Under the pieces are notes generated by a model, which saw only the letters and a list, made by a program, of their open reading frames with translations, was not told the DNA's origin and made no database searches. From contig JBGCEP010000010.1 in the NCBI GenBank assembly GCA_045106415.1, forward strand, positions 64,001-128,000: a DNA stretch of 64,000 nt. Direction: 5' to 3'. A program made the position numbers and the translations under genes. Positions 7,410 through 59,640 of the stretch are shown here, piece after piece. Origin of the DNA: Oligoflexales bacterium (GTDB lineage: Bacteria; Bdellovibrionota_B; Oligoflexia; Oligoflexales; Bog-1112). Within the stretch, counting starts at the first letter, position 1. The number at the start of each line of letters is the position of its first letter.

Positions 7410-7528
7410 CAATAACTTAAAAGAAAATATGAAGATTTCTGTACAAAGAAGACTTCAAACCTGTAATCTCACGACAATTTGGCCGTCAGAAGCCATGAAT
7501 CCTTAAAACTTTGCAACGGAGGCAAGGC

Positions 7529-9175
7529 ATGAGTAGGGAACACGAACCCGAGTTTAGTGTGGTACGTAATCTTTTGTGGCCCGTCCATAGGAGTGAGTTT
7601 CGAAAGTTCCTTCCTTTAGCGATAACAATCCTTGTTATAACTTTTAATTTTTCTATTCTTAAAACGATCAAAGATACAATCATCATCACAGCAGCTGGTT
7701 CTGAGGCGATTCCTTTTTTAAAATTATGGGTCATGCTTCCAGCTGCTTTTTTAGTAAGTATCTTACTAGGGTGGTGCTCCACCCGTTTTAGTCGTAAGAA
7801 AACCTTTATTTCTGCCCAGCTTTTTTTCATAGGGTTCTTTTTATTTTTCTCAACTGTTTTATTCCCAATGCGTGAATGGATTCACCCGCATGCTTGGGTT
7901 GCATCGTGGCGAGAAGTTTTACCCCAGGGGTTAGGGGGAATGCTTTCTCTGGTAGAGTATTGGTCTTATACGCTATTTTATCTCTTCGCAGAACTTTTTG
8001 GTGTTGTTATCTTATCTGTGATGTTCTGGGGATTTGTGAATCAGGTGACACAACTCCAACAAGCGAAGCGTTTTTATGGATTGCTTAACTTAGTTGGGAA
8101 CCTTCCTTGCGTATTGGCTCCTCTTGCTTTGAACTTTATGATTGATTGGATTTTGAAAAATCAGCAGGCTTCTCAAGAAGATCGTTGGGAAAGTGTAGTC
8201 AGTTCATCTGGGATTTTAGTCGCAAGCTTGGGCCTTGTAGGTGTTGTAAGCTACTGGTTTGCTGAAAAGTACGCAGAGCAAGAAGCAGCTTTAGAGACAT
8301 CTTCATCTTCTTCAAAAAAATCTCTTAAGAGTAAGAAACCTAAGGCCTCGTTGGTTGAAGGATTCCGTTTACTTGCGAGCGACTCATATGTTCGTAATAT
8401 TGGTATTCTCGTTCTAGCTTATAATATTGTAATCAATCTACTGGAAGTTGTTTGGAAAGAACAAGTCTCTCAGCTCTACCCCGATAAACTTGAATTCAGT
8501 ATGTATATGAATCAAGTCATGACAGCCACTGGCTTTGTTGGTATTTTTTGCGCGATGTTTCTAGGAACAGGTTTGGTGAGGCGATTTGGTTGGGCTATGA
8601 CAGCTTTCGCAACACCTTTTGTTATTGTGCTGACAGGTGTCCCATTTCTAGGGTGTGTCGTTTTTACGGAAGAGATGTCTGGTGTTGCAGATTATTTTGG
8701 GATGACAAGTCTGAGTCTTGCTGTGATGATGGGGGCAGGGCTAAGTGTGGTAAGTAAAGCTGTGAAATACTCCCTCTTTGATACATCAAAAGAACTCGCG
8801 TTTATCCCTATGGATGAACAAACTCGAGGATATAGCAAAGCTGCTATTGATGGTGTGTGCTCTCGAATTGGAAAATCAGGTGGCTCTGCAATTCTACAAA
8901 TTTGTTTCTTTGTGTTTGGTGGCATTGGAGCATCAACTCCAGCAGTGTTAATTGCTGTTCTTGTTCTTCTTGTGGGTTGGGGGAAATCGATTCTGGACTT
9001 AGGAGCTCAGTTTGATGAACGCTGTGATCTTTCAAATCATGATCAATCCGGTCCTTCTGGCTCACAGAATCCTCCAGCACAAAAGCCAACTAGAGTGATA
9101 GAAACGACGAAAAATCATGTAAACCGAAGTGCTGGAGCTGTGTGTGCTGGCCCTCAAATTGCGGCCACTATATAA
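7529..9175 (+). CDS. NTT/TLC family nucleotide transporter (ATP/ADP translocase type)
   Basis: LWPVH..E..KFLP, ILKTIKD, AGSEAIPFLKLW, FYLFAEL, FWGF.NQ, QAKRFY, INLLEVVWK, KYSLFD..KELAFIP, KAAIDGV..RIGKSGG; ATG 7529 after GGAGG. Confidence 0.95.
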   Translation: MSREHEPEFSVVRNLLWPVHRSEFRKFLPLAITILVITFNFSILKTIKDTIIITAAGSEAIPFLKLWVMLPAAFLVSILLGWCSTRFSRKKTFISAQLFFIGFFLFFSTVLFPMREWIHPHAWVASWREVLPQGLGGMLSLVEYWSYTLFYLFAELFGVVILSVMFWGFVNQVTQLQQAKRFYGLLNLVGNLPCVLAPLALNFMIDWILKNQQASQEDRWESVVSSSGILVASLGLVGVVSYWFAEKYAEQEAALETSSSSSKKSLKSKKPKASLVEGFRLLASDSYVRNIGILVLAYNIVINLLEVVWKEQVSQLYPDKLEFSMYMNQVMTATGFVGIFCAMFLGTGLVRRFGWAMTAFATPFVIVLTGVPFLGCVVFTEEMSGVADYFGMTSLSLAVMMGAGLSVVSKAVKYSLFDTSKELAFIPMDEQTRGYSKAAIDGVCSRIGKSGGSAILQICFFVFGGIGASTPAVLIAVLVLLVGWGKSILDLGAQFDERCDLSNHDQSGPSGSQNPPAQKPTRVIETTKNHVNRSAGAVCAGPQIAATI

Positions 9176-15182: not shown

Positions 15183-15438
15183 GTCTTAAAACCTTATCGT
15201 GTGTGATATCTATATCGGCTATATATATGAATAGTAAAATTGACCTTTTATTTTTATTCTATAGAAGTCGTGAGATTGATAAAAATAGAGATGATGCATA
15301 CCTCTGAAAATTTAGAATAAATAACTTTTGTTTGTTTTTATTTGAATTGAAATAGTCGTAATTATTTATAAGGCGGTTAAATAAAAAGCTTTTTTAAACC
15401 GAGGTGATGTTTGATAGTCAGACTATATGAGGGTCATT

Positions 15439-16413: not shown

Positions 16414-16435
16414 TTATTATATAACGGAGAAAAAA

Positions 16436-21650: not shown

Positions 21651-21668
21651 CTCGTGGAAAGGGCAGAT

Positions 21669-22935: not shown

Positions 22936-23024
22936 ATCCTTGAAATTTGATTGCAGTTTTCAAAAATCTTGATTAGAATACGATCGAATCCAAAAGTAAT
23001 GAACTGAATGTGTTGGGAAACATT

Positions 23025-24752
23025 ATGTCGGGACAGGATCATCATGAATTGTCGTTTTGGGAAAAGTATGTCTTTTCAACTGACCACAAAACGATAGGTA
23101 TTCAGTACGGAATTACAGCTCTTCTCTTTATGTTGGCTGGTTTTGGTTTAATGTTGCTCATGAGGTGGCAACTTGCTTATCCTTTTGAAGCAATTCCTGC
23201 TTTCAAATCGATGTTCAGCTTTGATCGGATGCCTGATGGTGTGATGACAGGGGAGTTTTATAATGGGTTGGGTGCTATGCACGGAACCATTATGATTTTT
23301 CTTGGTGTTGTGCCGATGGGAGTTGGAGCTTTAGGGAATTATGTTCTTCCGTTGCAAATTGGTGCGGTCGATATGGCTTTTCCTAAAATTAACATGATGA
23401 GCTACCACAGTTATTTCTGGGGTGGCGTTCTTATGTTGTTAAGTTTCCTTGCTCCTGGAGGACCAGCAAATACTGGTTGGACAGCGTATCCGCCTCTTTC
23501 TGTTCTTTCTGAGACTTCCGGTCAGACAATGTGGCTATTCTCGATGGTGTTTTTAATTACGTCTTCACTTCTTGGTTCGTTAAACTTTATTGTTACAACG
23601 GTTCAGCTTCGAGCTAAAGGTATGTCTTATTTTAGAATGCCAATCTTTGTTTGGGCACAGCTCGTGACTTCTTTCTTGCTTTTATTGGCGTTTCCTCCTC
23701 TTGAAGCAGCTGCTGTACTTCAGCTGATGGACCGTCTTGCGGGAACAAGTTTCTTTATGGCAAGTGGGCTGTATGTTGGTGGTGAGGCTATTGGTTATGC
23801 TGGTGGCGGGAGCGCTCTTCTTTATCAGCACCTTTTCTGGTTTCTTGGGCACCCTGAAGTTTATGTTTTAATTTTACCGGCCCTAGGAACAGTGGCTGAA
23901 ATTATTGCTGTGAATACAAGAAAACCTTTATATGGCTATACTTCTCTTGTTTATTCAATGATTTTTCTTGGGTTCATGTCGATGATTGTATGGGCGCATC
24001 ATATGTATATGACGGGTATGGGCTCTATTATGAGCGCTTTCTTTCAAACAACAACTATGATTATTTCTGTGCCTTCAGTCGTTATTCTGGCTTGTATGAT
24101 GCTCTCCCTTTGGGGAGGAAGTATTCGTTTTAACACCCCAATGCTTTTTGCCTTAGGCTTCTTACCAATGTTTGGTATTGGTGGTTTAACGGGCTTGCCT
24201 CTGGGTTTAGCTGCAACAGATATTACTTTGCACGATACTTATTATGTGATTGGCCACTTTCATTATGTTGTAGCTCCAGGGACAATCTTCGCACTCTTTG
24301 CCGCCGTGTACTTTTGGTACCCTAAAGCTACAGGTCGTATGATGAATGAATTTTGGGGAAAGATTCATTTTTTTGGGTCTTTTGTTTGCATGAATTTGAT
24401 TTTCTTTCCGATGCTGATTCAAGGTTTAGCAGGGATGAATCGCCGTGTTTATGATGGTGGAGCGATGTACCAATTTAATGCAGAAGTTCTTCATCTTAAC
24501 TATTGGATTTTAGTCGGTGGTCTTGGTTTAGCTGTTTTTCAGATTCCGTTTATTTTGAATTTTTTCCTTTCAATAAAACGTGGACAAAAAGTTGGCGCTA
24601 ACCCTTGGGATGCAACAACTATTGAGTGGGCAGATGCTCCTTCCCCACCACCACACGGAAACTTTTTGAAAGAAATTGTTGTTCACCGAGGCCCTTATGA
24701 GTACAGCGTGCCAGGTGATGATCGTGATTATATTCCACAAACACAGGCTTGA
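23025..24752 (+). CDS. ctaD: Cytochrome c oxidase subunit I (A1 type)
   Basis: DHKTIG, HGTIMIF, GWTAYPPL, WFLGHPEVY, WAHHM, HDTYYVIGHFHY, GMNRR. Confidence 0.97.
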   Translation: MSGQDHHELSFWEKYVFSTDHKTIGIQYGITALLFMLAGFGLMLLMRWQLAYPFEAIPAFKSMFSFDRMPDGVMTGEFYNGLGAMHGTIMIFLGVVPMGVGALGNYVLPLQIGAVDMAFPKINMMSYHSYFWGGVLMLLSFLAPGGPANTGWTAYPPLSVLSETSGQTMWLFSMVFLITSSLLGSLNFIVTTVQLRAKGMSYFRMPIFVWAQLVTSFLLLLAFPPLEAAAVLQLMDRLAGTSFFMASGLYVGGEAIGYAGGGSALLYQHLFWFLGHPEVYVLILPALGTVAEIIAVNTRKPLYGYTSLVYSMIFLGFMSMIVWAHHMYMTGMGSIMSAFFQTTTMIISVPSVVILACMMLSLWGGSIRFNTPMLFALGFLPMFGIGGLTGLPLGLAATDITLHDTYYVIGHFHYVVAPGTIFALFAAVYFWYPKATGRMMNEFWGKIHFFGSFVCMNLIFFPMLIQGLAGMNRRVYDGGAMYQFNAEVLHLNYWILVGGLGLAVFQIPFILNFFLSIKRGQKVGANPWDATTIEWADAPSPPPHGNFLKEIVVHRGPYEYSVPGDDRDYIPQTQA

Positions 24753-24763
24753 GGGGGTGTTCG

Positions 24764-25360
24764 GTGAGTGTTGTTATTCCTTATGTAAGTACTCCGCGGC
24801 CTGATACTGGGGTTACAAATGCAAAATTGGGTATTTGGCTGTTTCTTTTATCAGAAGTGATGCTTTTTGGTGGTTTGTTTTCCGCTTATATTTTATTGAG
24901 AGTCGGAGCTGATGTTTGGCCAGAAGGGGTTGAGGTGCTTAACGTACCTATTGCAACTGTAAACACGCTTGTCCTTATTATTTCAAGTGTTACGGTTGTG
25001 TTAGGGTGGGCAGCTCTGGTTGAAAAAAACTTTAAGCTCTACCGTATCTATATGATTGTCACTTTATTATGTGGCGTTGCTTTTATGATTAATAAAAGTA
25101 TTGAATATGCGAGTAAGTTTTCTCACGGAATATCTCCTGCGACGGATAATTTTTACGGAATCTACTTTACTATTACCGGACTTCATGGTTTGCACGTTTT
25201 AGGTGGAATGTTAGCTCTTGCCTGGTTAGCGTGGCCTGGTAGTAAAATGTGGGAGACTGATCCAGAGCGTTTTACGGGGCGTGTAGAATGTGCAGGGTTG
25301 TTTTGGCACTTAGTGGATTTAGTCTGGATTGTTGTGTTTCCTGTTCTGTATTTGATTTAA
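24764..25360 (+). CDS. ctaE: Cytochrome c oxidase subunit III (short form)
   Basis: WLFLLSEVMLFGGLF, TGLHGLHV, WHLVDLVW. Confidence 0.93.
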   Translation: MSVVIPYVSTPRPDTGVTNAKLGIWLFLLSEVMLFGGLFSAYILLRVGADVWPEGVEVLNVPIATVNTLVLIISSVTVVLGWAALVEKNFKLYRIYMIVTLLCGVAFMINKSIEYASKFSHGISPATDNFYGIYFTITGLHGLHVLGGMLALAWLAWPGSKMWETDPERFTGRVECAGLFWHLVDLVWIVVFPVLYLI

Positions 25361-25378
25361 GTCAAAGTGGGGTTCAAA

Positions 25379-25675
25379 ATGGCTGGTGCCGATGGTTTGC
25401 AAGAATATAAAAAAGCTTGTTTTGTTGTTTTTGGTTGCCTTATGGTGCTTACGGTTTTGACGGTTGCTGTTGCGTATATCAAAATGCAAACACAGCTCGC
25501 AATTGCTGTTGCTTTGTGTATCGCTGGAGCTAAAATGACTTTAGTTCTTGGTTGGTTTATGCACTTAGTGTCTGAGAAAGCGATTATCCGCTATTCATTA
25601 GCTATGACTTTTTTCTTCTTTATTTTTTTACTTCTACTGCCAGTGATAAACGATACGCATTTAATTGGATCGTAG
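25379..25675 (+). CDS. Cytochrome c oxidase subunit IV (CtaF/CyoD family)
   Basis: LTVLTV, IAGAK..LV..WFMHL. Confidence 0.88.
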   Translation: MAGADGLQEYKKACFVVFGCLMVLTVLTVAVAYIKMQTQLAIAVALCIAGAKMTLVLGWFMHLVSEKAIIRYSLAMTFFFFIFLLLLPVINDTHLIGS

Positions 25676-25690
25676 GATGAAGAGGTTGTT

Positions 25691-25918
25691 ATGTCTTTAA
25701 GAATATTTCATATTGTTTTTATTTTAAGCTCCATCATACTCCTTGGTGGATATACTTATTGGTCAGCTGTCGCTTACACTGAAGTCGATAATGTGTTCTA
25801 CCTTGTTTCAGCAGCAGGCTCTGTTTTTGGCTGTGTTTTGCTAGCTTTTTATTTAAAGACAGCGATAGAAAAAGCAGGGCAGGAGGTCAAAAAATGGCGG
25901 CAAGTCTTAGCAGGCTGA
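25691..25918 (+). CDS. Small two-TM membrane protein in the cox operon
   Basis: GAGG RBS; MSLRIFHIVFI start; two hydrophobic helices. Confidence 0.7.
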   Translation: MSLRIFHIVFILSSIILLGGYTYWSAVAYTEVDNVFYLVSAAGSVFGCVLLAFYLKTAIEKAGQEVKKWRQVLAG

Positions 25919-26148
25919 TTTTGTCTTTTTTACTTCTAAGTAGTACACCTCTTTTCAGTTGCCCAACTTGTATGTCAGCTGGTGGAGAAGCAGTTAAGGG
26001 TTTGTTTTGGTCAATGCTGGCTTTATTTTTAACTGTTTTATTTGTTCTGTGTGGATTGGCGGGTTATTTTTTGTTTTTAAAAAATCAAGCGACAGCTCAT
26101 GCAGCCAAAGAGAGCAGTCTTTATTTAAACAAACGTGAAGGAGAGTGA
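25894..26148 (+). CDS. Small membrane protein with periplasmic CPxC motif
   Basis: GGAGG RBS; signal/TM segment, SCPTCM, then TM helix. Confidence 0.7.
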   Translation: MAASLSRLILSFLLLSSTPLFSCPTCMSAGGEAVKGLFWSMLALFLTVLFVLCGLAGYFLFLKNQATAHAAKESSLYLNKREGE

Positions 26149-26151
26149 ATC

Positions 26152-26952
26152 GTGACGGCTAACATGAAGGAGTTTTTAGGCTTTCGTTTATTGCCTGAGG
26201 TGGCATCAGCTCACGGTGATCATCTCGACGATATCATGCTTTATCTTCATATTTTAATGATAGTTTTGGCTGTGGGTTGGGGGCTTTATCTTATTGTTGC
26301 TCTCTTTAAATTCCGAGCTGGACGTGGTCATAAAGCAGATTATCACGGAGTGCAGTCTTCGGTTGCAAAATATATCGAAATCGGTGTTGTTGTTATTGAG
26401 GTTGTTTTGCTTCTTTGTTTTTCTATCCCTTTTTGGGGAAAGTGGGTAGATGCAGAACAACAGATGACAAACACCGAAGAAGAGAATGCCACTGTCGTTC
26501 GTGTTGTTGCGCAACAGTTTCAGTGGAATTTTCATTATGCTGGTCCTGACGGTAAATTTGGTATGGTCAGCCCTGATTTTTACGATAAAAACCCTGTAGG
26601 ATTAGATCCTGAAGATCCGTGGGGTGCTGATAATTTTATCACGCAGCATGAGATGCACGTGCCTGTTGGCCGGCGTGTTGTTGCTTATATTACATCACGA
26701 GATGTGATTCATGGGTTCGGAGTTCCTGCTATGAGAGTGAAGCAAGATGCAACACCAGGTGTGAATGTCCCTATTTCCTGGATCCCAACTAAAGAAGGTG
26801 TTTATGAGATTGCTTGTTCTCAATTATGCGGAGCCGGGCACGGTTTGATGAGAGGTGTGCTTGTCGTTCATAGCGAGGATGACTATAAAGCCTGGTTGGC
26901 ACAGCAGTACGATAAAGATGATGTTGAGCGTATGTTTGCAGGAAATAAATAA
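26152..26952 (+). CDS. ctaC: Cytochrome c oxidase subunit II
   Basis: Two TM helices, QFQWNF, DVIHGF, CSQLCGAGHGLM CuA site. Confidence 0.95.
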   Translation: MTANMKEFLGFRLLPEVASAHGDHLDDIMLYLHILMIVLAVGWGLYLIVALFKFRAGRGHKADYHGVQSSVAKYIEIGVVVIEVVLLLCFSIPFWGKWVDAEQQMTNTEEENATVVRVVAQQFQWNFHYAGPDGKFGMVSPDFYDKNPVGLDPEDPWGADNFITQHEMHVPVGRRVVAYITSRDVIHGFGVPAMRVKQDATPGVNVPISWIPTKEGVYEIACSQLCGAGHGLMRGVLVVHSEDDYKAWLAQQYDKDDVERMFAGNK

Positions 26953-26994
26953 CGACTGATTGACAAATAGGTCTTGTAAGAAGGAGCCAAAGAA

Positions 26995-27591
26995 ATGCTG
27001 TTCTGTAGAAGTTTGTTGATGTTTCTCTCTGTTTTTACCACAACTTTTGCGTTGGGTTCCGAGGCTCTTTACAATTATGATAGCCTGATCTACCGATATA
27101 ATTGTGTGAGTTGTCACGGTAAGGACGGTCATTTCCCAACTGTTCCGGGTTACCCTAGGATAGGTGGGCTTTCCCAAGGGTATCTTAAACAGCAGTTACA
27201 AGACTTTCGTTCAGGAAAGCGAGTGAACTCTCGTGGTAAAACGATGCATGATCTTGCCAGGGCATTCTCAGATGATGTGATTGAAGCTTTGTCAACTGAA
27301 ATTTCAGCTTATACGCTCCCGGCTGTTAAGAGTGTCCCTGAGCATCCAGGCAAGAAATTGTATGCAGAAAAAGGCTGTATCGCATGCCATGGTATGGATG
27401 GTTCTCAGCCCATTGCTTCTTTCTACCCTGCAATTGCTGGGCAGCATCGAGATTATTTATACACTCAATCTACAGATATCAAATACAAAAGACGAACAGG
27501 GGGTCAAGCGGTGGCAATGGCAGCTATTATTGCAGCTGTGCCAGATGAAGACCTTAAAGTGATTTCAGAATGGTTGGAATCTGTTCGTTAA
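26995..27591 (+). CDS. Dihaem cytochrome c4-like protein
   Basis: Signal peptide; CVSCHG and CIACHG; two P..xGx..xYL..Q repeats with distal Met. Confidence 0.9.
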   Translation: MLFCRSLLMFLSVFTTTFALGSEALYNYDSLIYRYNCVSCHGKDGHFPTVPGYPRIGGLSQGYLKQQLQDFRSGKRVNSRGKTMHDLARAFSDDVIEALSTEISAYTLPAVKSVPEHPGKKLYAEKGCIACHGMDGSQPIASFYPAIAGQHRDYLYTQSTDIKYKRRTGGQAVAMAAIIAAVPDEDLKVISEWLESVR

Positions 27592-33532: not shown

Positions 33533-33578
33533 CCCATAAAGAATAAGTAGTAAAAAGCTCATTCTTTATGGGTTTTTT
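33532..33578. terminator. Hairpin between convergent genes
   Basis: ACCCATAAAGAAT...ATTCTTTATGGGT perfect 13-bp inverted repeat with T-run. Confidence 0.75.
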
Positions 33579-41867: not shown

Positions 41868-41890
41868 GATTATTTTTTTGATGTTGTGAT

Positions 41891-44046: not shown

Positions 44047-45975
44047 TTAAGATGCTAATGGTTCTCTTTGACTTGATACAGAGAGAAGTTCACAGAGGCG
44101 TTCTGGAAAATCATCAAGTGATACAATTTCTTTGTGAGCGTTGAGGCGAATTGCTTCACGCGGCATCCCGAAAACAACACAACTCTCCTCGTCTTGAGCA
44201 AGGGTGTAAGCACCACTTTCTTTCATTTTTAAAAGACCCTGAGCTCCATCTCGACCCATACCGGTGAGTATGGCGCCGATAGTATTTTTTCCAACTTCTT
44301 GCGCAACGGAGTTCATGAGAACGTCAACGGCTGGAACATGTGTTTCCCCTTCAGATCCCTCTTGTAAATGAATTTTCAATTGATCTTGTGTTTTTTTAAC
44401 AATCATATGTTTGTCGCCAGGGGCTATATAAACCGTCCCTGGGCTGACAACGTCCATGTGCTCAGCTTCTTTAACGTGAAAAGGGCATAGACTATCAAGT
44501 CTTTTGGCAAAAAGAAGAGAGAAATGTTTAGGGATGTGCTGAACAATTAAGATTGGAGGGATATTTTCTGGCAAACTTTGTAAAATATTTGCAAGAGCAA
44601 CAGTACCCCCTGTTGAAGATCCAATTGTAATAATTTTATCTTTCCGCAGTGATGAATGATTTGTGGGTTTCACTTTAACAACGGAGGTCTTTTTAATATG
44701 AGATTTTCTAGCAGATGCTGCAATTTTAATTTTGTCAGTAAGCTGAGGAATGAAAGTTTCCATCTCGCTTAAGTCTGGTTTTTCTACAAAATCAATGGCA
44801 CCAAGTTCCATTGATTTAAGTGAAAGTTTTCTATCTTCGTTATTTACACCTGAAATCATAATGACGGGTAGCTTTCTTTTTGGAATCATTTGCTCTAAAT
44901 ACTCAATGCCGTTCATATGAGGCATATTAATGTCAAGAGTGATAAGATCAGGTTCACTGTCTTTCATAAGCTTTTCAGCTTCTAAAGGATCAGAGGCAAT
45001 ACCAAAAAGTTCAAAATCATGATTTTTTTCTACAATAGATGCGATGAGATTTTGGATAACTTTTGAATCATCAACGATAAGAACTTTCGTTTTACCTGAT
45101 GGTTGAGGAGAAGTTGTGATTGTTGTTGAGATTTTTTTGCTCGATTTAGAGGCATTTTCTTTTCTCCCATATACGGAGAGTCCAATACTTTCTAAGGGTT
45201 CAGGTATTGTTTTCAATGTTTCACACATACCTGTAATAAGGTGTCCGTCAGGCTGCAGATGATTTGATAGTTTTTGAATGACTTTTAAAATAGTTGGTTC
45301 GTCAAAATAGATAAGAACATTTCGGACCATAATGAAGTCGAATTTCATCGGTATTTTCTGATCAAAAGCACATAGGTTATGCTGGCGAAATTTTATTTGT
45401 TTTTTGAGTTTGTCCGAAACTTTACATAAATCAGCATTTTGTCCTTTGCCAATGAGAAAAAAATCTTTAATCTGTGACATAGAGACATCTCGTTGAACGA
45501 GTTGTTTATTATAAACGCCCTGTGAGGCAAACTGTAAAACATCTGTGTCAATGTCTGTGGCTAAGATGCGATAATCAAAAGGACCAACAACTTTTTGCAT
45601 TTTTTCAAATGTCATCGCAAGGCTATAGGCTTCTTGCCCATAGGAAGAGGCTGCAATCCAAGCTGATATTGATTTTTTTGGATTTGCTTTGATTCTAGAT
45701 TCAATATGCTGAAAGTGCTCTTTTTCACGAAAAAATTCTGTTTTGTTTGTTGTCAATGCATTTGTAAAATAGGTCATTTCTTCTATATTATTGTCTTTTA
45801 ACAGACAAATATAGTCATGCCACACTTGAAACCCATGATGGCGAAGGCGTTTCCCAAGGCGACTTGTAAGAAGAGTTTTCTTCGACTCTTGCATCTTAAT
45901 ACCTGTTTTTTGCTTTAACAGGTCTTGCATGAACTTAAACTCGCTATTGGAGAGTTCTGGTATCACTTGTGCCAT
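44047..45975 (-). CDS. CheR-CheB fusion (methyltransferase + receiver + methylesterase)
   Basis: TTNKTEFFRE, SYGQEAYS, ATDID, RNVLIYF; then IVDDS..LDINMP..EKP; IGSSTGG, VQHIP, LTGMGRDG. Confidence 0.93.
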   Translation of the reverse strand: MAQVIPELSNSEFKFMQDLLKQKTGIKMQESKKTLLTSRLGKRLRHHGFQVWHDYICLLKDNNIEEMTYFTNALTTNKTEFFREKEHFQHIESRIKANPKKSISAWIAASSYGQEAYSLAMTFEKMQKVVGPFDYRILATDIDTDVLQFASQGVYNKQLVQRDVSMSQIKDFFLIGKGQNADLCKVSDKLKKQIKFRQHNLCAFDQKIPMKFDFIMVRNVLIYFDEPTILKVIQKLSNHLQPDGHLITGMCETLKTIPEPLESIGLSVYGRKENASKSSKKISTTITTSPQPSGKTKVLIVDDSKVIQNLIASIVEKNHDFELFGIASDPLEAEKLMKDSEPDLITLDINMPHMNGIEYLEQMIPKRKLPVIMISGVNNEDRKLSLKSMELGAIDFVEKPDLSEMETFIPQLTDKIKIAASARKSHIKKTSVVKVKPTNHSSLRKDKIITIGSSTGGTVALANILQSLPENIPPILIVQHIPKHFSLLFAKRLDSLCPFHVKEAEHMDVVSPGTVYIAPGDKHMIVKKTQDQLKIHLQEGSEGETHVPAVDVLMNSVAQEVGKNTIGAILTGMGRDGAQGLLKMKESGAYTLAQDEESCVVFGMPREAIRLNAHKEIVSLDDFPERLCELLSVSSQREPLAS

Positions 45976-45984
45976 AAGAGATCC

Positions 45985-48255
45985 TTAGATGTTGTCCCAA
46001 TCATCATCATTATGAGATGTTGCGCCATAGGTTTGACCGATAGATTGTATTGAATTATTCTTTTCAGTGGATTTTTTAGATTTTTTTGGATCTTTTGGTT
46101 TTCTTTCTTCTGCCTGAAGAGCAATCTCATCATGAGAAACTGGTTTGTTGTAGATAATCTCCATGAGTTGCTCAACGTTGGAAAGAAGTGTTGTGGATTG
46201 ATCTTCGAGCCCATCAGCCACTGTTGCTGAGTTTTCTGCTGTTGCTGAGTTTTGTTGGGTTGCTTGGTCGAGTTGGTTCATGGCTTCGTTGACCTGTGAA
46301 ACGCCGTCAGATTGCTCTCGTGATGCTGTCACAATACGAGCTGCCTGCTCTGATAGTAGTTCTGCGTCAGAAGCAATGCTCTCAAGGTATTTTGCTGTGT
46401 CTTTTACAAGAATGTTTCCTTGTTCAACTTTCTTCTTACTTTCTGAAGTAATGGATTCTGTGTCACGGATGGATTGCTTAACCATAGAAGATATTTCAAG
46501 AGCAGCTTTTCCACTCATTTGAGCCAAGTTTCCAACTTCTTGTGCTACAACAGCGAATCCTCTTCCGTGTTCCCCTGCTCTTTCTGCTTCAACAGAAGCA
46601 TTAAAAGAAAGTAGTTTTGTTTGAAAGACGATTTCGTCTATGACTTCTGTTTTTTCTCCAATTTCTCCAATAATTGAAACAAGGTCTTGTATTTTGTTGT
46701 TACTTTCAGTGATTTCATCCATGGATTTGACCAGATCTGTCATAGAAATATTGCCTTTATTAGCCATATTTTTAACATGTGCAGAAAGGTCGGAGGAATC
46801 TTGTGCTTGCTGAAGATTGTTTTTGACCATTGCACTAATTTCTTCGACGGAGGCGGCTGTTTCCTCAATTGCGGCACCTTGCTCTGTTGCAAGGTCGGAC
46901 AGCTGTTGGCTGGATTGGGACATCGATCGAGCAGCTTCAGAAACTTTTTCTGAGCCATCGCCTAGCTCTTTGGCGATATGTAGAATGGGATTTGCAATAC
47001 CTTTTCCAACGAAAAGTCCGAAAGAAATAGTGATAATGACAGAGAAGAGTGCAATGAGAAGCATGTATTGGCCGAGAAGTTCAGCGGAATAAAAAGCTTC
47101 TTTGGTACTTTGTTGAGCAATAAACGCCCACCTTAGTCCAAGAAGGTCAAGTGGGGCGAAGCGTGTGAGAACACGAGATCCAAGATAGTTCTGTGTAACT
47201 CTTTCCCCTGATTCTCCTGAAATAGCATCATTGACATCAAGAGTTTCTATTTTTCCAGTTTCAGAATTTCGGAATGAGCTTACAACACTTCTGTGGTCAG
47301 GATCTAAAAAGCTGTCCGATCGCATGAGGTTGTCTGGACCAACAATGAAACTTTCGCCTGTTTCACCTAGCCCTCCTCTTTCGCCCATAATGCTGTTAAT
47401 ACCATCGATAGGCATTTGAAAGACAACAACAGCAATGTTTTCTCCTTTATGGAAAATAGGTGCAGCAATAAAGCTCGCAGGAGCTTCATAAGAAGGAGTG
47501 TATTGTTTGAAGTCAATAAGGGAAACAAAATTTTGATCTTTGGTTTGTGCGGCTTCTTTAAAAACTTCAGCGAAATTAGTATTGGAATAAGGTCCAGTTA
47601 TAAGTGATGTTGCGTAGTCCAACTCTTTAAAGACAGAATAAATAATATGACCTGTTTTAGAATCAAGAATGAAAATATCGTAATATCCAAAGTTTTCTAG
47701 GTATTCTTTGATATATGGGTGGTTTTTGTCATGGTGCTCGGAATATAACGAATTATCACTTGCTTTATAGAGTTCATGCTTTGATCCAAGTGGATGTTCA
47801 TTATCTTGAATGTACCGATATTGCCATAAAATAGACAGGTCATCCATTTGACTGACAAGAGAATTTACATCGGGTTTTTCTCCATTTTGAGATTGATATT
47901 CTTCACCAAAAGGACCGTTGTAATATTGTAATAAAGAGGTTTTCATTGATTCAATACTTGCGTCATCAATTTGTTGCTCTTCAATAATGCTAAAAAAAGA
48001 TTCTCGAAAGTCAGCTGCTGCTTCTTGAATCATAATATCATGTGAGAAAGAGGTGATTTGATGTTTAATATCAGTAAAATATCGTTTTACACTACTGAGC
48101 TTTAATTCTTGTATAGATCTTAATCGATCAAAGGCAGCTTCTTCTAGAAAATCGTTTGAGAGCTTATATGCTAAAGAACCCATAATAATTAAAGGGACAA
48201 TGCCACTGCAAACGAATTGGAGGAGTAACTTTTTCTTTAAATCAAGTTTCATCAT
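45985..48255 (-). CDS. Methyl-accepting chemotaxis protein with large periplasmic Cache-like domain
   Basis: Two TMs; [46 protein letters not shown]-terminal DWDNI. Confidence 0.95.
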
Positions 48256-48770
48256 GCTGCACCACCTTGTCCTTGGTCTTTTAAGACCTTGAAATCTGTT
48301 CTGTTCATAGATCTATGTAAATCGATAAGGAGTGTGAGCTCTCCATCATGATGTTTCGCAATCCCGTAAACACCATCACCTTTGCGGTTTGAAGTATCTT
48401 CTAAATTAATTTCTAATTCAGAATCGTCATAACCAACAACTTCGAGGACTTCATCAACAATAGACCCCACAACAATATCTCCTACGTGAGAAATAATAAT
48501 ACTGGTTTTTTGAGAATTCACGTCTAGGCTTTGAAAGCCTAGTTTAATTCTTAAATCGATGACTGAAATGATTTGACCTCTAAGGTTTATGAGTCCTTTA
48601 TAAAAAGGAGGGACCTTAGGAAGAGGTGTTATATTTGTGAGTCCAATGACTTCTTTGACCCTTGATAAGGGGAATGCATATCTTTTATCACTGAGGCTAA
48701 AGATAAGGTGCTTTTTCTTCGATCGAGCAGATTCGTTTTCCGTAATATTTGTTCCGTCTAACAAGCTCAT
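48252..48770 (-). CDS. cheW: Chemotaxis adaptor CheW
   Basis: [33 protein letters not shown]. Confidence 0.95.
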
Positions 48771-48783
48771 AAAATAGAACCTC

Positions 48784-50583
48784 TCATTTATAATTGTTTT
48801 TAACAACAGAGTTTAAATCAAGAACTAAAGCCACTTTTCCATCTCCAAGAATGGTTCCTCCGCTGGATGATTTTACTTGACGAAATTCAGGACCTAATTG
48901 TTTCAGAACAATTTGCTCTTGGGATAGAATTTCATTCACAAAAAGTGCATATTCATTTTGTTCATAACGTGTAATAAGAGCGAGTTTTTTTGTGGATTTT
49001 TTCTTTTTTGTTTTGATTTCTTCGACATCAATAACCTCAGCTTTGTTTCTCTTTTTTTCTTTTTTGGGTGTTACATCCATTCTTTTTGTGACGAGAATGT
49101 CTTTGAGGTCAATGACTTTTAGAATACGATCTTGAAGACGAATAATATTTTCATCTTTTTGATAACAGTCTTCATTTATTGAAATCGCTTCGTTGAAATC
49201 TGAATTTGGTACAACATATTTTTCTCCAGAAATAGAAATAATTGTTCCGTTAAACATAGCAAGACTCAAAGGAAGGCGGATGATAAAACATGTTCCTTTG
49301 TCTTTTTTGGAGAAAATTTTGCAATGGCCTTTTAAAGCTATGATTTTTTGATTAACAACATCCATTCCGACACCTCGACCAGATATTTCAGTTGCTTCTT
49401 CTCGAGTTGAAAATCCACTGGCAAAAATGAAAGAAAAAACTTTTTCATCACTAAGCTCCTCACCAGATCCTTTAATAATTCCTAATTTTTGAGCTTTTCG
49501 TAGGATACCTTCACGATTTAACCCCCCTCCGTCATCTTCAACAATAATCTCGAAAGATCCTCCGTTGCGCTGAGCTGTAAGGCTGACTTTTCCTATGGGG
49601 TCTTTTCCTTTTTCGACTCTATCTTCGGCGGATTCAATGCCGTGATCGACTGCGTTTCGAATCATATGAGTTAAAGGATCTATGAGAGCGTCGGCAATGG
49701 TTTTGTCTAGCTCAGCAGTCTCTCCTTTTTTAATAAAATCGATCTCTTTTCCAGTCATTTTAGAAATATCACGAACTGTTCTTTCCATACGATTGAATAA
49801 TGGCTTGATGGTGACCATTCTTAAACTCACCATTGTGTACTGTAAGTCTTGTGTGATCTTTTTAAGAGAAAGAGCAGTTTTTCTGACAAATTCTTCTTGA
49901 TCTGAAATATCACCCTCTAGAATATGATCGAGTGAAGACTGTAAAATAACCTGCTCTCCAAATAAATTGAGGAGTTCGTCTATTTTTCTTAGGGGAATCT
50001 TAATAAGCTCGTCGGCCGTGACAGTGGTAGGCTGAATCATTGCGGAGGGTTGCTCAAGGTAAGGAGGTGGAGGCTCAGAGTCAGAGCTTTCTTCTTGTCT
50101 GTAATCATCGCCGCTGCTTTGCTTGACATCATGGCTTCTTTCTGAGGAGGTTGTCGAATGTTCTGTGTCCTCAGAGCCTTCTACTTGAGGGTTATGAAGC
50201 AAGTATTCTAGTTTTTGTGTATGGGTCGTGAGGTGATGTGTGTCGGCTTCGACATTATTTCTTGCTTGTTGTTGATAGTTTCTTAAGTGATCAACAGTGT
50301 GAATAAGTCCATCAATAATGTCTGGTGTGATTTTCATCTCGTCAGCACGTATTTGACTTAAGATGTTTTCAGCAGCATGAGCGCACTGAGAAAGATCTGT
50401 GAGTCCTACTGTCTTTCCTGAGCCTTTTGCATTGTGAAAAAGCCTAAATAGCTCGTTGACGCAATCTTTGTCATCTTGGTTTTTTTCGAGCCTCATGAAA
50501 GCTTCTTCCATGCTTTCTAAAAGATCACTAAGCTCGTCTAAAAAAGTTTGTTTTAATTCGCGAAGAAGATCGTCGTGCGACAT
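48784..50583 (-). CDS. cheA: Chemotaxis histidine kinase CheA (no evident P2 domain)
   Basis: LFRLFHNAKG Hpt; DPLTHMIRNAVDHGIE; DDGGGL; SGRGVGMDVV; TILGDG.VALVLD. Confidence 0.95.
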   Translation of the reverse strand: MSHDDLLRELKQTFLDELSDLLESMEEAFMRLEKNQDDKDCVNELFRLFHNAKGSGKTVGLTDLSQCAHAAENILSQIRADEMKITPDIIDGLIHTVDHLRNYQQQARNNVEADTHHLTTHTQKLEYLLHNPQVEGSEDTEHSTTSSERSHDVKQSSGDDYRQEESSDSEPPPPYLEQPSAMIQPTTVTADELIKIPLRKIDELLNLFGEQVILQSSLDHILEGDISDQEEFVRKTALSLKKITQDLQYTMVSLRMVTIKPLFNRMERTVRDISKMTGKEIDFIKKGETAELDKTIADALIDPLTHMIRNAVDHGIESAEDRVEKGKDPIGKVSLTAQRNGGSFEIIVEDDGGGLNREGILRKAQKLGIIKGSGEELSDEKVFSFIFASGFSTREEATEISGRGVGMDVVNQKIIALKGHCKIFSKKDKGTCFIIRLPLSLAMFNGTIISISGEKYVVPNSDFNEAISINEDCYQKDENIIRLQDRILKVIDLKDILVTKRMDVTPKKEKKRNKAEVIDVEEIKTKKKKSTKKLALITRYEQNEYALFVNEILSQEQIVLKQLGPEFRQVKSSSGGTILGDGKVALVLDLNSVVKNNYK

Positions 50584-53663: not shown

Positions 53664-54422
53664 TTATTCAGGTTCTTCTTTTTCTCCGAGATAAGAACTT
53701 AGTTTTGCACGAATGACTTTTGGATTTTCCCCTGCGATAATTCCTCTTGAGCCAATTTTAATCATTTCAAGCCCAGTTCTCTCCATTGTAGAGTTAAATT
53801 TGAGTTTTGAAGAAAGAGGAATGAAAATTAAGGTTGAAAAAAGTGAACCATAAAGTGTGGTTACAAGTGCTACCGCGAGTCCAGGGCCAATTTTAGAAGG
53901 GTCTGAAAGGTTAGCCATAATAACAATCAGCCCCACAACAGTACCAATCATACCAAAGGCGGGACAGGACTCACCAAGGAAGTCTAATACGTCATGAGCA
54001 TGTTTATGCCGCCTTTTTAAATTAAGCATTTCTGTACTTAAAATTCCTTCAATAGTATCAGCATCGTATCCGTCAACCATGCTTCGAACGGCTTTATTCA
54101 GATAAGGATGATTGACGGTGTGTTTTTCAAGGCTAAGAATGGAACCTTTTCTAGCAACTGTAGCGCACTCAATGATTTCGTCGACCATTTCAGCATATGA
54201 TGCAACGCTGGACTTAAAACAGATAGGGATTGCTTTGAGACCTGCCATAAAACAAGGGATATTCAAACGCATCATGGTTGCAAAAAGACTTCCTCCCATT
54301 ACAATGACAAGACTGAGAAGATCCCAATACATTCCAAGGCCTAACTCAGCAGAAGAAACAACCATACATCCGACAACAACAGCACTCCCACAAATTAATC
54401 CCAGAATTGTTGCTAAATCCAT
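53664..54422 (-). CDS. motA: Flagellar stator subunit MotA/PomA
   Basis: MDLATILG, IVMGGS, GILSLE-like, PAFGMIGTVVGLI, AVALVTTLYG, GENP; ATG overlaps the upstream TAA. Confidence 0.93.
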   Translation of the reverse strand: MDLATILGLICGSAVVVGCMVVSSAELGLGMYWDLLSLVIVMGGSLFATMMRLNIPCFMAGLKAIPICFKSSVASYAEMVDEIIECATVARKGSILSLEKHTVNHPYLNKAVRSMVDGYDADTIEGILSTEMLNLKRRHKHAHDVLDFLGESCPAFGMIGTVVGLIVIMANLSDPSKIGPGLAVALVTTLYGSLFSTLIFIPLSSKLKFNSTMERTGLEMIKIGSRGIIAGENPKVIRAKLSSYLGEKEEPE

Positions 54423-54733
54423 TAGGTTTCTCCTTCGCATATTTTATAACTGAGAACTTTTCGTGGAAACACCGAATGATCAATTTCAAGTGTGGAATAT
54501 CGGATTTTTTTCTGGAAAACATCGACTGATTTTTGGTATTCCATTTCTAGGTAACATTTTTGTTTGCCGATTTTATAATTACGGACACAAAGACTGACAA
54601 ACCCTTCATGAGCGATCTCGACATGATTGACATCAGGTTCTAAATACCATTCGCACTCTTTGAGACGTTGAGGGTCACACCCTAAAGTGAACAGTGTAAA
54701 GCAAAAGGTAATGATGTTACGGTTTGTAATCAA
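54422..54733 (-). CDS. Cys-rich lipoprotein embedded in the stator operon
   Basis: Lipobox TLGC; four more Cys; overlaps both neighbours. Confidence 0.7.
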   Translation of the reverse strand: MITNRNIITFCFTLFTLGCDPQRLKECEWYLEPDVNHVEIAHEGFVSLCVRNYKIGKQKCYLEMEYQKSVDVFQKKIRYSTLEIDHSVFPRKVLSYKICEGET

Positions 54734-55490
54734 TTTTGATATCCACTCGGCGATTTTTTTTGCGCCCTTCTATTGTCTCATTAGAGAACGCTGGATCTGA
54801 AGCGCCAAATCCGGCAATTTTGACCTTATCTGGTGCAAAGTTCTGATAATCTAAGAAATATCGAGCGATATAGCTTGCTCTCAAGGAAGAAAGTTCTAGA
54901 TTTGAAAATCCGCTTCTAGGAATAATATGATCTGTATGACCTGTGATGATGATGTGCCGATTGAGTGATGATAAGACTTCAATAAGAGGTTTTAATTTTT
55001 TATATGAACTTAATGTTAAACGATATTTTCCCGGCTTATAAAAACCTGAAGATGTCAGTCGAACTGTGATGCTGGTCTTGTTTTTTAATAATGAAATAGA
55101 TTTTCCAATGTTTTTTTGATGCTGATCAATTTTCCCGCTTTCAAGAGTTGCAATTGATTGTTTTATCAAATCAAAGTCTCGATTTAATATATTGATGTTA
55201 AAAATATTTTTATTACTTGTTTCGATTTTCTTTTTTGGAATTTTTTTACCTTTCCAAAACTTGAAAACAGCTTTTCCATTAGGTAAAGGGCCCTTTTGAG
55301 GCTCATTGATAGAGTCTGGTACTTCCATAAAAGCTTCGCGTATTGAAGAGGCAACTCCTAACATAGTAAGAGTTTCTCCTTCGGGTTTGATACCGTAAAG
55401 AACCACAAATGTCGCAAAAAGAAGAGTCATTAAGTCAGCATAACTCACCAGCCAACCAGCTCCTCCACCGCCTTCATCATCGTCTTCGAT
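54717..55490 (-). CDS. motB: Flagellar stator subunit MotB paralogue 2 (proposed ATC start at 55490)
   Basis: WLVSYADLMTLLFATFVVLY TM; GHTD, NLELSSLRA, NRRVDI OmpA-like domain; GAGGT RBS 5 nt before ATC; in-frame stop just upstream. Confidence 0.88.
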   Translation of the reverse strand: MEDDDEGGGGAGWLVSYADLMTLLFATFVVLYGIKPEGETLTMLGVASSIREAFMEVPDSINEPQKGPLPNGKAVFKFWKGKKIPKKKIETSNKNIFNINILNRDFDLIKQSIATLESGKIDQHQKNIGKSISLLKNKTSITVRLTSSGFYKPGKYRLTLSSYKKLKPLIEVLSSLNRHIIITGHTDHIIPRSGFSNLELSSLRASYIARYFLDYQNFAPDKVKIAGFGASDPAFSNETIEGRKKNRRVDIKIDYKP

Positions 55491-55501
55491 AGTAAACCTC
55501 G

Positions 55502-56287
55502 TTAGTTATCCGCGTAGTTGATAAATATTTCAACTCTACGATTGAGTTGACGACCGTATGGTTGATCTTGTCGTGCAATGGGTTTTCTGTCTGCGTAGCC
55601 AGAGATGCTAAGAAGCTTAGCGTCTGCTTGTAGGTTTTTTATAAGATATGCTGAAACAGAGTTTGCACGTTGTGTTGAAACAACCCATTTTGAAATACCT
55701 TTCTTTTCTGGAACGTCATCAGTATGCCCTTCAATATGAAGAGGCTGTTGAAGATCGACAAGGTTTTGTAACAAAGGTTTTAATGACTTTAGATCTGATT
55801 GATTGGCTTTGGATTGCCCTTTTTGGAAGTATAAAGAAGAAAGAAAATTGAGCCGGATTGATGATTCATTTTTTTCAATCGCAACGACATCATGGTTTTT
55901 AACATTTCCTTTTCTAGGCTTTTTGACACTGAGCATTTCTACAAGGTTCCTTAAGTGTGCATAATCTTTTTCTATTTTGCTTTTTGAGAAATGAGTTTCC
56001 AGTGCTTGTCTTTTACTGACAGGCTCATGAGCAATGTTGCCTTTCCAAAACCTAAAAATATCAATTCCTTTTGTGAGTTCGCCTTTTTTTTCAACCAAAG
56101 GAATATCTTCAGGAACTTCAACAAAACTTTCTTGAATTCTAGATTTGACTCCTTGGAAAGCTGATGTTTTCCCTTCAGGTTTTAAGCCATAGAGGACTAC
56201 AAATGTTGCAAACAAAAGGGTCATTAAGTCAGCGTAACTTACGAGCCAACCACCACCTTCGCCGCCTTCATCATCATCATCTTCGAT
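55502..56287 (-). CDS. motB: Flagellar stator subunit MotB paralogue 1 (proposed ATC start at 56287)
   Basis: WLVSYADLMTLLFATFVVLY TM lies partly upstream of the ATG at 56224; GHTDD, STQRA, NRRVEI; AAGGAG RBS 8 nt before ATC. Confidence 0.88.
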   Translation of the reverse strand: MEDDDDEGGEGGGWLVSYADLMTLLFATFVVLYGLKPEGKTSAFQGVKSRIQESFVEVPEDIPLVEKKGELTKGIDIFRFWKGNIAHEPVSKRQALETHFSKSKIEKDYAHLRNLVEMLSVKKPRKGNVKNHDVVAIEKNESSIRLNFLSSLYFQKGQSKANQSDLKSLKPLLQNLVDLQQPLHIEGHTDDVPEKKGISKWVVSTQRANSVSAYLIKNLQADAKLLSISGYADRKPIARQDQPYGRQLNRRVEIFINYADN

Positions 56288-58547: not shown

Positions 58548-58719
58548 AATTTGCATTTGATTTCTTTTTTGAAAAAAACATAAAAAATCAACAAAAAAAT
58601 CATGGAACATAGATGTTATCTTTTTTTAAGATGAGCCTCTGTTTCGTTTTTCTATGAAATCAGGTGATAATATCATGTGTGTCAATCATCTATGGCCTTA
58701 ATGGCAGGAGGAGTTGTCC

Positions 58720-59640
58720 GTGGGCTTAAGGATAAAAACCAATATTGCTTCTTTGAATGCTCGTCGTAATTTGAATTCATCTACGAATACTCAAAGACGT
58801 GCGATGGAAAAACTATCTTCAGGTCAGCGTATTAATCGCGCAGCTGATGATGCAGCAGGACTTGCTGTCTCTGAAAATATGCGTGCAGATATTCGCTCTC
58901 TTGAGATGGCTCGCAGAAATACATCAGACGGTGTTTCTCTTGTTCAAACAGCAGAAGGAAGCTTGGTTGAAACGACCAATATTCTTGTGCGTTTGAGAGA
59001 ACTGGCTGTTCAATCAGCGTCCGATACAATTGGTGATAAAGAAAGAGAATTTCTTGATAAAGAATTTCTACAGCTCAAAGACGAAGTTGACCGAATTGCA
59101 CGTTCGACGGATTTTAATGGAACGCGGCTTCTTCTCGGGGGTTCAGATCGTCCTGATGATTATGGTTCAGGTGGGAATAGCAATCCATTAGAAATACAAG
59201 TGAGTAAAGATTTTTATGAAGATTCAGATGCTATTGATGTTCGCAACCCAGTCAATATCATTAAGGTTTCCTTTGCGAACTTAAATAGTACAACAACAGG
59301 TGAAGGTTCTTTAGATATCGGCGAGCATGAAGATGGGGCTCGTGTTCATAGAAAAGAAGATGCACAACACAGTATTATGAAGCTTGATAAAGCACTTTAT
59401 AAAGTAAATGACTACCGATCTTATTTAGGATCTGTTCAAAACCGCCTGACATCCACGATTAGAAATTTAGGTGTCCAGGTGGAAAATCTTGAGGAATCGA
59501 GGAGCCGTATTCGCGATGCAGATTTTGCAGCTATTACGGCTGAGATGACGCAAGCAAATATTCTTCAACAAGCAGGTGTTTCTGTTCTATCGAATGCAAA
59601 TAACCAACCACAAATCGCACTTTCATTATTAGGTGGTTAA
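58720..59640 (+). CDS. fliC: Flagellin
   Basis: (M)GLRIKTN, KLSSG.RINRAADDAAGLA, QTAEG.L.E, QNRL, SRIRDADFA, QAG.SVL..AN..PQ.ALSLLG; GTG 58720. Confidence 0.97.
   Translation: MGLRIKTNIASLNARRNLNSSTNTQRRAMEKLSSGQRINRAADDAAGLAVSENMRADIRSLEMARRNTSDGVSLVQTAEGSLVETTNILVRLRELAVQSASDTIGDKEREFLDKEFLQLKDEVDRIARSTDFNGTRLLLGGSDRPDDYGSGGNSNPLEIQVSKDFYEDSDAIDVRNPVNIIKVSFANLNSTTTGEGSLDIGEHEDGARVHRKEDAQHSIMKLDKALYKVNDYRSYLGSVQNRLTSTIRNLGVQVENLEESRSRIRDADFAAITAEMTQANILQQAGVSVLSNANNQPQIALSLLGG

Follow-up and report, generated by a model that had tools for sequence, protein, structure and literature searches.

We analyzed a stretch of 64,000 nucleotides (the window; G000:C10:64001-128000) from contig C10 of a metagenome-assembled genome (MAG), G000, which carries on its forward strand a gene for a nucleotide transporter (NTT) of the TLC family. 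The open frame of this gene ends at 9175 and could begin at a TTG (7511) or an ATG (7529). The 7529 start, which agrees with the coordinates of an earlier reading made from the letters alone (the sequence-only reading), is likely to be the true one because a GGAGG stands six bases upstream of that ATG. A scan for promoters and terminators around the gene gave no signal above shuffled expectation. The features of the gene are as follows.

7529..9175, + strand: NTT/TLC-family nucleotide transporter gene; 548 aa (P0001), one domain, without a HEAT extension
7518..7522, + strand: Shine-Dalgarno-like GGAGG, 6 bases 5' of the ATG at 7529, read from the sequence
8870..8884, + strand: GKSGG codons (residues 448-452); family-wide NTT motif, no indicator of substrate class
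9017..9172, + strand: C-terminal low-complexity tail of ~50 residues past the TLC domain (the Pfam match ends at residue 495), not HEAT

The 548-aa product matched the Pfam TLC profile (PF03219) with 492.5 bits (E 1.8e-147; cut-off 21), the match spanning residues 4-495 and profile positions 3-491 of 491, and the NCBIfam profile TIGR00769 'NTP/NDP exchange transporter' with 443.9 bits (cut-off 387.2). Its sole other Pfam match was a sub-threshold one to MFS_1. By Pfam, neither the protein nor the products of the adjacent genes contain a HEAT or cyclic nucleotide-binding (cNMP-binding, cNBD) domain, and membership of the NTT-HEAT fusions was ruled out on these grounds. An AlphaFold model built from a 30-row alignment had a predicted local distance difference test score (pLDDT) of 84.7 and a predicted template modeling score (pTM) of 0.83, with a low-confidence tail (pLDDT <50) from residue 516 on. 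When the model was searched against the PDB with Foldseek, the five best matches were all five solved NTT entries, i.e., 9j3n, 9j3o, 9j3j, 9j3l and 9j3m, with target-normalized template modeling (TM) scores of 0.70-0.92. The matches to 9j3n (TM 0.86, E 2e-25) and 9j3l (TM 0.92, E 5e-24) were at 34-35% identity, and generic major facilitator superfamily (MFS) transporters came next in the ranking, far behind (E about 1e-5). The model has the all-helical, MFS-like membrane fold of the solved NTT structures. At 26/26 near-invariant positions of a 75-row family alignment the protein has the majority residue, and the charged and aromatic invariant residues that it keeps include K48, K65, E155, K413, D418, R446 and K449. 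The full NTT signature without HEAT extension that the sequence-only reading had described is thus borne out by both profiles, the Foldseek matches and the lack of a HEAT domain. Judged by profiles and model together, 7529..9175 is a real, intact, full-length nucleotide transporter gene of the NTT (TLC/AAA) family, of the chlamydia/plastid type, and its product is predicted to be an inner-membrane protein. Taken alone, it is a divergent yet typical NTT.

K449 is the lysine of the GKSGG motif, which the sequence-only reading had taken as a sign of phosphate-coupled ATP/ADP exchange. The same lysine, tied to phosphate, is presumably the one that was mutated in Arabidopsis AtNTT1. Mutation of a conserved-region lysine in that protein is described in a passage of PMC1951785 as lowering ATP import and leaving ADP import unchanged. 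In our alignments, K449 was K in 74/75 NTTs, both Chlamydia crocodili orthologues (Npt1 and Npt2) and all three G000 paralogues included, and it was invariant in all 30 rows of the smaller alignment. Since it occurs across all classes, even in the Npt2 orthologue, the GKSGG lysine is a family-wide feature and no marker of ATP/ADP exchangers, and that part of the sequence-only reading does not hold.

G000 is a 2.95-Mb MAG of 89 contigs from an uncultured bacterium, 93.8% complete with 0.33% contamination. As no 16S rRNA gene was matched in it, its taxonomy was based on the names of RpoB matches. The RpoB protein (contig C44) had its best matches at 71-77% identity; the named ones were mostly 'Oligoflexales bacterium', in agreement with the Oligoflexia-like origin guessed earlier, and the other names were Oligoflexus sp., Bdellovibrionota, Deltaproteobacteria, Proteobacteria and one stray 'Chitinophagaceae'. 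The DNA sequencing runs that contain the NTT gene all come from one study, labeled plant metagenome, and one of these runs may be the source; no RNA run was listed.

The best match of the window NTT among 5.8 billion clustered proteins was at 41% identity, and the named matches were all Chlamydiales. In species-representative genomes the best match was also at 41%, the named relatives being overwhelmingly Chlamydiota, with a few Coxiellaceae, Francisellaceae, Berkiella, Endozoicomonas and Bacteroidetes. Within its own family the best match reached 39.7%, and its two paralogues in G000 were 35% and 30% identical to it. That the closest named relatives are Chlamydiota and that the genome is a MAG could speak for an artefact, in which the contig with the NTT gene would stem from a chlamydia-like organism and be mis-binned or chimeric. 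No chlamydial protein, however, is more than 41% identical to the window NTT, and contamination is low. The tetranucleotide composition of contig C10 (136 kb) correlated with that of the rest of the genome at r = 0.998 (median of 43 contigs, 0.992), and 10-kb windows around the NTT gene gave 0.98 against a background median of 0.969. C10 also carries Oligoflexales-like flagellin and Clp genes that are 57-61% identical to those of the order, and NTTs were found in all independently assembled genomes of the family (below). Composition therefore disposes of the chimeric contig that the sequence-only reading had named as a way to be wrong. A chimeric origin was rejected on the low contamination, the family-wide NTTs and the matching composition, and we regard it as extremely improbable.

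For the survey of NTTs across genomes, a full-length NTT was defined by E <= 1e-30. G000 has three: one on contig C83 (C83:9695-11140, L001; 638 bits), the window gene (493 bits) and a third copy elsewhere on C10 (C10:35617-37059, L003; 480 bits). A further 28-bit match in a 437-aa open reading frame (ORF) was not counted as an NTT. Among 95 genomes of the order, full-length NTTs were present in 16/16 genomes of the window's family, which span 11 genera, at 1-6 per genome, and in 0/79 genomes of the order's other 15 families, where a looser threshold yielded partial matches of 20-36 bits only. This distribution indicates that NTTs are a fixed feature of one family and no assembly accident. A sample of the phylum (116 genomes, >=80% complete) contained one other holder, in a family of a second order (1/28; 1/30 genomes for two further families of the sample taken together). 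This NTT (G122:C3:14394-15857, L025), the only one outside the family in the sample, comes from a 1.8-Mb genome; its tight grouping with the copy of G006, a genome of the family (support 99-100), suggests that it was transferred within the class.

The placement of the window copy among NTTs was examined in three trees: a FastTree tree of 128 rows (48 Oligoflexia NTTs and 80 named loci), an IQ-TREE tree under LG+G4 of 75 rows, made after removing 54 of the named loci and 14 Oligoflexia rows that were fragments or near-duplicates and after adding 15 paralogues from five named genomes, and an IQ-TREE tree under LG+C20+F+G4 with posterior mean site frequencies (PMSF) of 39 of the 75 rows. The two unfused NTTs of Chlamydia crocodili served as anchors. 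The first of these was taken as the Npt1 orthologue because of its 967-bit match to 9j3n and the second, at 393 bits to the same entry, as the Npt2 orthologue by elimination. A clade around the Npt1 anchor had support of 98-100 in all three trees and comprised Waddlia, Rhabdochlamydiaceae and Endozoicomonas copies, three subclades of the window's family and the C83 copy of G000. In each tree, the window copy fell outside it and grouped with copies from G009, G008/G012 and G004 in a clade restricted to the family (support 97-99), which was placed among the remaining chlamydial and gammaproteobacterial paralogues; the sister group of this clade varied between analyses (support 84-92). The third G000 copy belonged to a separate family-only clade of 15-20 rows. 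The three copies thus fall into three different clades, and since every one of these also contains copies from other genera of the family, the paralogues are older than the divergence of those genera.

Scores and residues pointed the same way. Against 9j3n, the C83 copy scored 568 bits and the window copy 362, compared with 967 for the Npt1 orthologue and 393 for the Npt2 orthologue. At six discriminating columns, conserved to >=90% in the 22 rows of the Npt1 clade and to <=20% in 29 other non-family rows, the Npt1 state was present at 4/6 in the C83 copy, 1/6 in the window copy and 0/6 in the Npt2 orthologue. By these comparisons, the C83 paralogue is likely to be an Npt1/NTT1-type ATP/ADP exchanger, and the window copy itself is probably not the exchanger. 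The label 'ATP/ADP translocase' given to the window copy by the sequence-only reading is not upheld, since the copy lies outside the Npt1 clade in three trees, has one of the six residues and is outscored by its C83 paralogue.

A profile search of G000 for genes of nucleotide synthesis gave no match for purH, pyrB, purM or purA; for purF it gave only 109 bits (cut-off 350) to the N-terminal amidotransferase half, in a 624-aa ORF, and for pyrE only 34 bits (cut-off 107). Nor did a tblastn search of the whole assembly with nine purH, pyrB, purA and pyrE proteins from within the family return anything at E <= 1e-3. All six profiles detected the respective gene in the majority of the named controls. 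The genome has kept the beta subunit of an F-type ATP synthase (F1 beta, atpD; 816 bits), CTP synthase (pyrG; 804 bits), GMP synthase (guaA; 419 bits), NAD synthetase (nadE; 164 bits, above cut-off) and a full-length nadD-like gene (97 bits; cut-off 112). In four relatives (G009, G007, G005 and G013) purF, purM and purH were likewise not found, and pyrE was not found in three of the four. Of the 15 other genomes of the family, purH is present in 10 and a pyrB-family match, weak in two cases (127-133 bits), in seven; in other families of the order, purH and pyrB were each found in 21/25 genomes. G000 therefore seems, on these searches, to be without de novo purine and pyrimidine synthesis, and the simplest reading of the pattern would be that the transporters were gained first and the pathways lost later in some genera, G000 among them. 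Without such synthesis, ready-made nucleotides would have to come from another cell, a host or prey; the import of nucleotides from another cell that had been proposed earlier is supported by the six pur and pyr markers not found in this 93.8%-complete genome.

NTTs may carry out net nucleotide uptake, NAD+ import or ATP/ADP counter-exchange, as set out in passages of PMC1951785. The explanation that we favor, with a probability of about 0.58, is that the window copy serves the net import of nucleotides into a bacterium that is auxotrophic for them and depends on a host or prey. The analysis shows family membership, fold, conserved residues that are intact, the place in the trees, the distribution of NTTs and the missing biosynthetic markers; from these we infer the substrate, how and in which direction transport is coupled and runs, and that the cell relies on another one. 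The cell keeps flagella, chemotaxis, an aa3-type oxidase and an F-type ATP synthase and would take its nucleotides from the host or prey. The C83 copy, of the Npt1 type, would exchange ATP for ADP and so supply adenine nucleotides and also, within a partner cell, energy. The remaining nucleotides would enter by net import through the third copy and the window copy, the latter working by proton symport or by exchange. Chlamydia Npt2 we take to be a net importer of nucleoside triphosphates (NTPs). Because the window copy stands with the Npt2 orthologue on the 'other NTT' side, it most likely imports NTPs other than, or besides, ATP. As pyrG and guaA are kept, UTP and/or GTP would be obvious needs; UTP could be converted to CTP via pyrG, and XMP to GMP via guaA, inside the cell. 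The sequence-only reading thus stands as to family, the missing HEAT extension, Oligoflexia and nucleotide import, and falls as to the ATP/ADP label and the GKSGG lysine.

Respiration, chemotaxis and motility are encoded within the window itself, where the cytochrome oxidase, chemotaxis, stator and flagellin genes that had been noticed from the sequence were all found by Pfam.

23010..27591, + strand: cytochrome c oxidase subunits I, III and II and cytochrome c (Pfam COX1, 438 bits, COX3, COX2, Cytochrom_C)
44047..50583, - strand: chemotaxis cluster of a CheR-REC-CheB fusion, a methyl-accepting chemotaxis protein (MCP), CheW and CheA (Pfam)
53664..56224, - strand: MotA and two MotB/OmpA-type stator genes (Pfam MotA_ExbB, OmpA, MotB_plug)
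58714..59640, + strand: flagellin, one of 8 flagellin matches in G000 (Pfam Flagellin_N, Flagellin_C)

Flagellin, which is ancestral in the order, is kept in G000 and in 10/15 family relatives; outside the family, 19/25 genomes of the order had it, as a rule with 7-9 matches per genome. At the end of the CheA-CheW-MCP cluster, a single 642-aa ORF (44047-45975, - strand) fuses CheR (N-terminal and S-adenosylmethionine-binding domains), a receiver domain and the CheB methylesterase, placing the methyltransferase and methylesterase of chemotactic adaptation in one protein.

Several observations, given in this and the following three paragraphs with the explanations on which they bear, count against the window copy being a net importer in a dependent cell. 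Function cannot be read from a tree, and characterized NTTs entered ours via Chlamydia orthology only, the trees being without Protochlamydia NTT1-5, Rickettsia Tlc1-5 and plastid sequences. The branch of the window NTT is long (1.2-2.0 changes per site). The discriminating columns are not an independent test, because they were derived from the same tree. When the window clade was held with the Npt1 clade in an approximately unbiased (AU) test, the difference in lnL was 4.9 and the grouping was not rejected (p = 0.435), and the window NTT keeps the Npt1-type K at residue 411. The last two results also favor an alternative in which the window copy is itself an ATP/ADP counter-exchanger for energy parasitism. 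Its full NTT signature with all family-invariant charged residues would fit such a role, as would its best solved match, the ATP/ADP translocator NTT1 of C. pneumoniae, and ATP/ADP exchangers arose in more than one NTT clade, e.g., Rickettsia Tlc1. We nevertheless consider this alternative unlikely, given the position of the window copy outside the strongly supported Npt1 clade in three trees, its single Npt1-type residue among the six, a match to 9j3n well below that of the C83 paralogue, the oxidase and ATP synthase that the cell possesses, and a GKSGG lysine that is family-wide and unspecific.

The case for auxotrophy has its own difficulties. Among the family members with synthesis genes are G008, G012 and G004, which also have window-clade NTTs, so that the presence of NTTs is not tied to the loss of nucleotide synthesis; the large genomes G008 and G012 have purH and pyrB together with six NTTs each. 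The purA gene was absent in G000 only, all 15 relatives having it, which may point to an assembly gap, and in a fragmented MAG such as this one the pathway genes may be clustered on an unassembled piece. Of the genes around the NTT, the upstream inositol-monophosphatase (IMPase)-family gene is 36-50% identical to homologues across the order with no preference for the window's family (a haloacid dehalogenase (HAD) hydrolase gene lies convergently on the other side), and the Clp ATPase of the window shows 55-61% identity in the window's family and in other families alike. These two genes, as far as their similarities go, support membership of the order only and are uninformative below that level.

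The transporter could also belong to a free-living cell that scavenges nucleotides, e.g., in biofilms or on plant surfaces, or exports them, and would then be no sign that the cell needs a host or prey. Arguments against this are the scarcity of free nucleoside triphosphates outside cells, the six markers of de novo synthesis not found in G000 and the nearest named relatives, which are overwhelmingly obligate intracellular Chlamydiota, together with Coxiellaceae, Francisellaceae and Berkiella. G000 has, on the other hand, kept motility, chemotaxis and respiration and has few eukaryote-like repeat proteins, and in its larger family relatives (4.6-6.3 Mb) purH and pyrB are retained alongside 6 NTTs. 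According to passages of Major et al. (2017; PMC5381601), NTT genes occur widely in free-living prokaryotes; the widespread forms described there are, however, mostly NTT-HEAT fusions, and the window protein is not one. A free-living role appears very unlikely to us. The import of a cofactor such as NAD+, or of another nucleotide-like compound, is a further alternative. NAD+/ADP exchange is an established NTT activity, reported for Protochlamydia NTT4 in part of PMC1951785, and a shift of substrate is plausible because the window copy is a divergent paralogue with a long branch, for which a search of 5.8 billion proteins gave nothing above 41% identity. With nadE and the nadD-like gene, however, NAD is probably completed in the cell, so NAD+ import would be less needed, and no positive link to NAD+ carriers emerged from trees whose rows include none of the characterized ones. 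We regard cofactor import as most improbable.

Whether the net importer that we favor would serve its cell in a eukaryotic host or in bacterial prey was considered separately. A eukaryotic partner is suggested by the nearest NTT relatives, which belong to obligate intracellular bacteria of eukaryotes, by ankyrin-repeat matches in 16/16 family genomes (up to 120 in G002) compared with 11/25 genomes of other families, and by two leucine-rich repeat (LRR) proteins in the window. The signs of a eukaryotic host in G000 itself are weak, with 1 ankyrin match (1-120 in each of the 15 other family genomes) and about 6 LRR-related places in the whole genome. In G000 and four relatives, no type III secretion system (T3SS) secretin scored above the cut-off of 238 bits (best, 126), and no sheath protein VipB of a type VI secretion system (T6SS) was found; a type IV system (T4SS) was not searched for. 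These weak or missing signs complete the points that count against the favored explanation. A predatory life is favored by the reputation of the lineage and by the NTT reported for Halobacteriovorax marinus in a passage of PMC5381601. Counts of ankyrin and LRR repeats do not settle the kind of host or prey. Separately, two genomes of another family (f5) of the same order, G019 and G034 (2.2 and 3.0 Mb, each in a single contig), lack NTT, pyrB and flagellin but have 31 and 110 ankyrin-repeat matches, respectively, and purH is missing in G019; the order may thus contain a further host-associated lineage, one that relies on different means.

Other features of the window were recorded in passing. 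The two LRR proteins (LRR_4/LRR_8) are encoded at 648-1514 (- strand) and 57732-58547 (+ strand). Just downstream of the NTT region, 9924-15182 (- strand) encodes a 1752-aa protein with a Ser/Thr protein kinase domain, an AAA_16 (STAND-type) ATPase, a GAF domain and a histidine-kinase ATPase. The Clp/Hsp100-type ATPase ORF at 33578-35689 (- strand) is 703 aa long without a match to the N-terminal Clp domain, whereas its best homologues in the order mostly lie in frames of about 860-900 aa, although some are as short as about 725; judging by these lengths, the ORF may be N-terminally shortened or its start mis-set. Two adjacent AAA+ ATPase genes (456 and 523 aa) with no further recognizable domain lie at 40404-43462 (- strand). 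ORFs of 263-645 aa in 15427-17434, 19713-22445, 27757-29310, 52595-53659 and 61888-63036 had no Pfam match at E <= 1e-5.

NTTs are the classic means by which chlamydiae, rickettsiae, microsporidia and plastids tap the nucleotides of another cell, and here they occur throughout one family of a lineage otherwise thought to be free-living or predatory. Their fixation in that family and not in its relatives points to an independent and, it appears, so far undescribed move toward dependence on another cell. The 16 genomes, from 11 genera and 1.8-6.3 Mb in size, hold at least four ancient NTT clades, and flagella, chemotaxis and respiration are still present in many of them. It is conceivable, at somewhat less than even odds, that the whole family is an unrecognized radiation of nucleotide (perhaps energy) parasites at different stages of pur and pyr loss; if so, its living members would present a series of stages that connects endosymbiosis with free or predatory life. 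Since its members range from nucleotide makers to apparent non-makers, the family could show the order of events, i.e., whether transporters were gained first and pathways lost later with motility and respiration retained. Several of its NTT clades are uncharacterized and offer material for the discovery of substrates; the substrate of the window NTT may differ from that of any characterized NTT because its clade is lineage-specific and fast-evolving. NTTs in 16/16 genomes, ancient paralogue clades and a staged loss of synthesis with motility and respiration kept make the family worth following up.

In a literature search that left subscription journals mostly outside, no work was found that connects NTTs or ATP/ADP translocases with Oligoflexia, Oligoflexales or Bdellovibrionota; the single paper in which both 'Bdellovibrionota' and 'ADP translocase' occur, PMC11549363, has them in unrelated passages. 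That NTTs reach beyond Chlamydiae, Rickettsiales and plastids, and so outside the classic parasites, is already known from statements in Major, Embley & Williams (2017; PMC5381601). The same paper reports an NTT in the predatory Halobacteriovorax marinus, with which the window NTT has in common that it is canonical and unfused and comes from a lineage traditionally placed among the predatory 'deltaproteobacteria'. The window's lineage belongs to a different phylum-level group in the genome collection used, and the Halobacteriovorax NTT was not among our tree rows. The present case differs in that NTTs are family-wide (16/16), with 1-6 paralogues in at least four clades, and in that de novo nucleotide synthesis is apparently missing in G000. 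With the NTT-HEAT fusions of free-living bacteria, the window NTT has the TLC domain in common and differs in having no HEAT or cNMP-binding domain.

Among the solved structures, C. pneumoniae NTT1/Npt1 (9j3n, 9j3o) and the Arabidopsis plastid transporter AtNTT1 (9j3j, 9j3l, 9j3m) share family, fold and all family-invariant residues with the window copy, which scored 362 bits against the former and 310 bits against the latter. Unlike them, the window copy lies outside the Npt1 clade with 1/6 of its residues, has a long branch and carries an extra C-terminal tail of ~50 residues. Chlamydia Npt2 and the other chlamydial 'nucleotide-pool' NTTs were compared as well. In the LG+G4 and LG+C20 trees, the half that contains the window clade also contains the C. 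crocodili orthologue of Npt2 and additional NTT copies of Parachlamydiaceae, Waddlia, Coxiellaceae and Francisellaceae, and the window copy is as far from Npt1 as Npt2 is (362 vs 393 bits to 9j3n). At no more than 41% identity, it is no Npt2 orthologue. Chlamydia reportedly has one transporter for the net uptake of NTPs and one for energy. The arrangement proposed for G000, with an Npt1-type exchanger beside net importers of the remaining nucleotides, would parallel that of Chlamydia (Npt1 and Npt2) and that of Protochlamydia.

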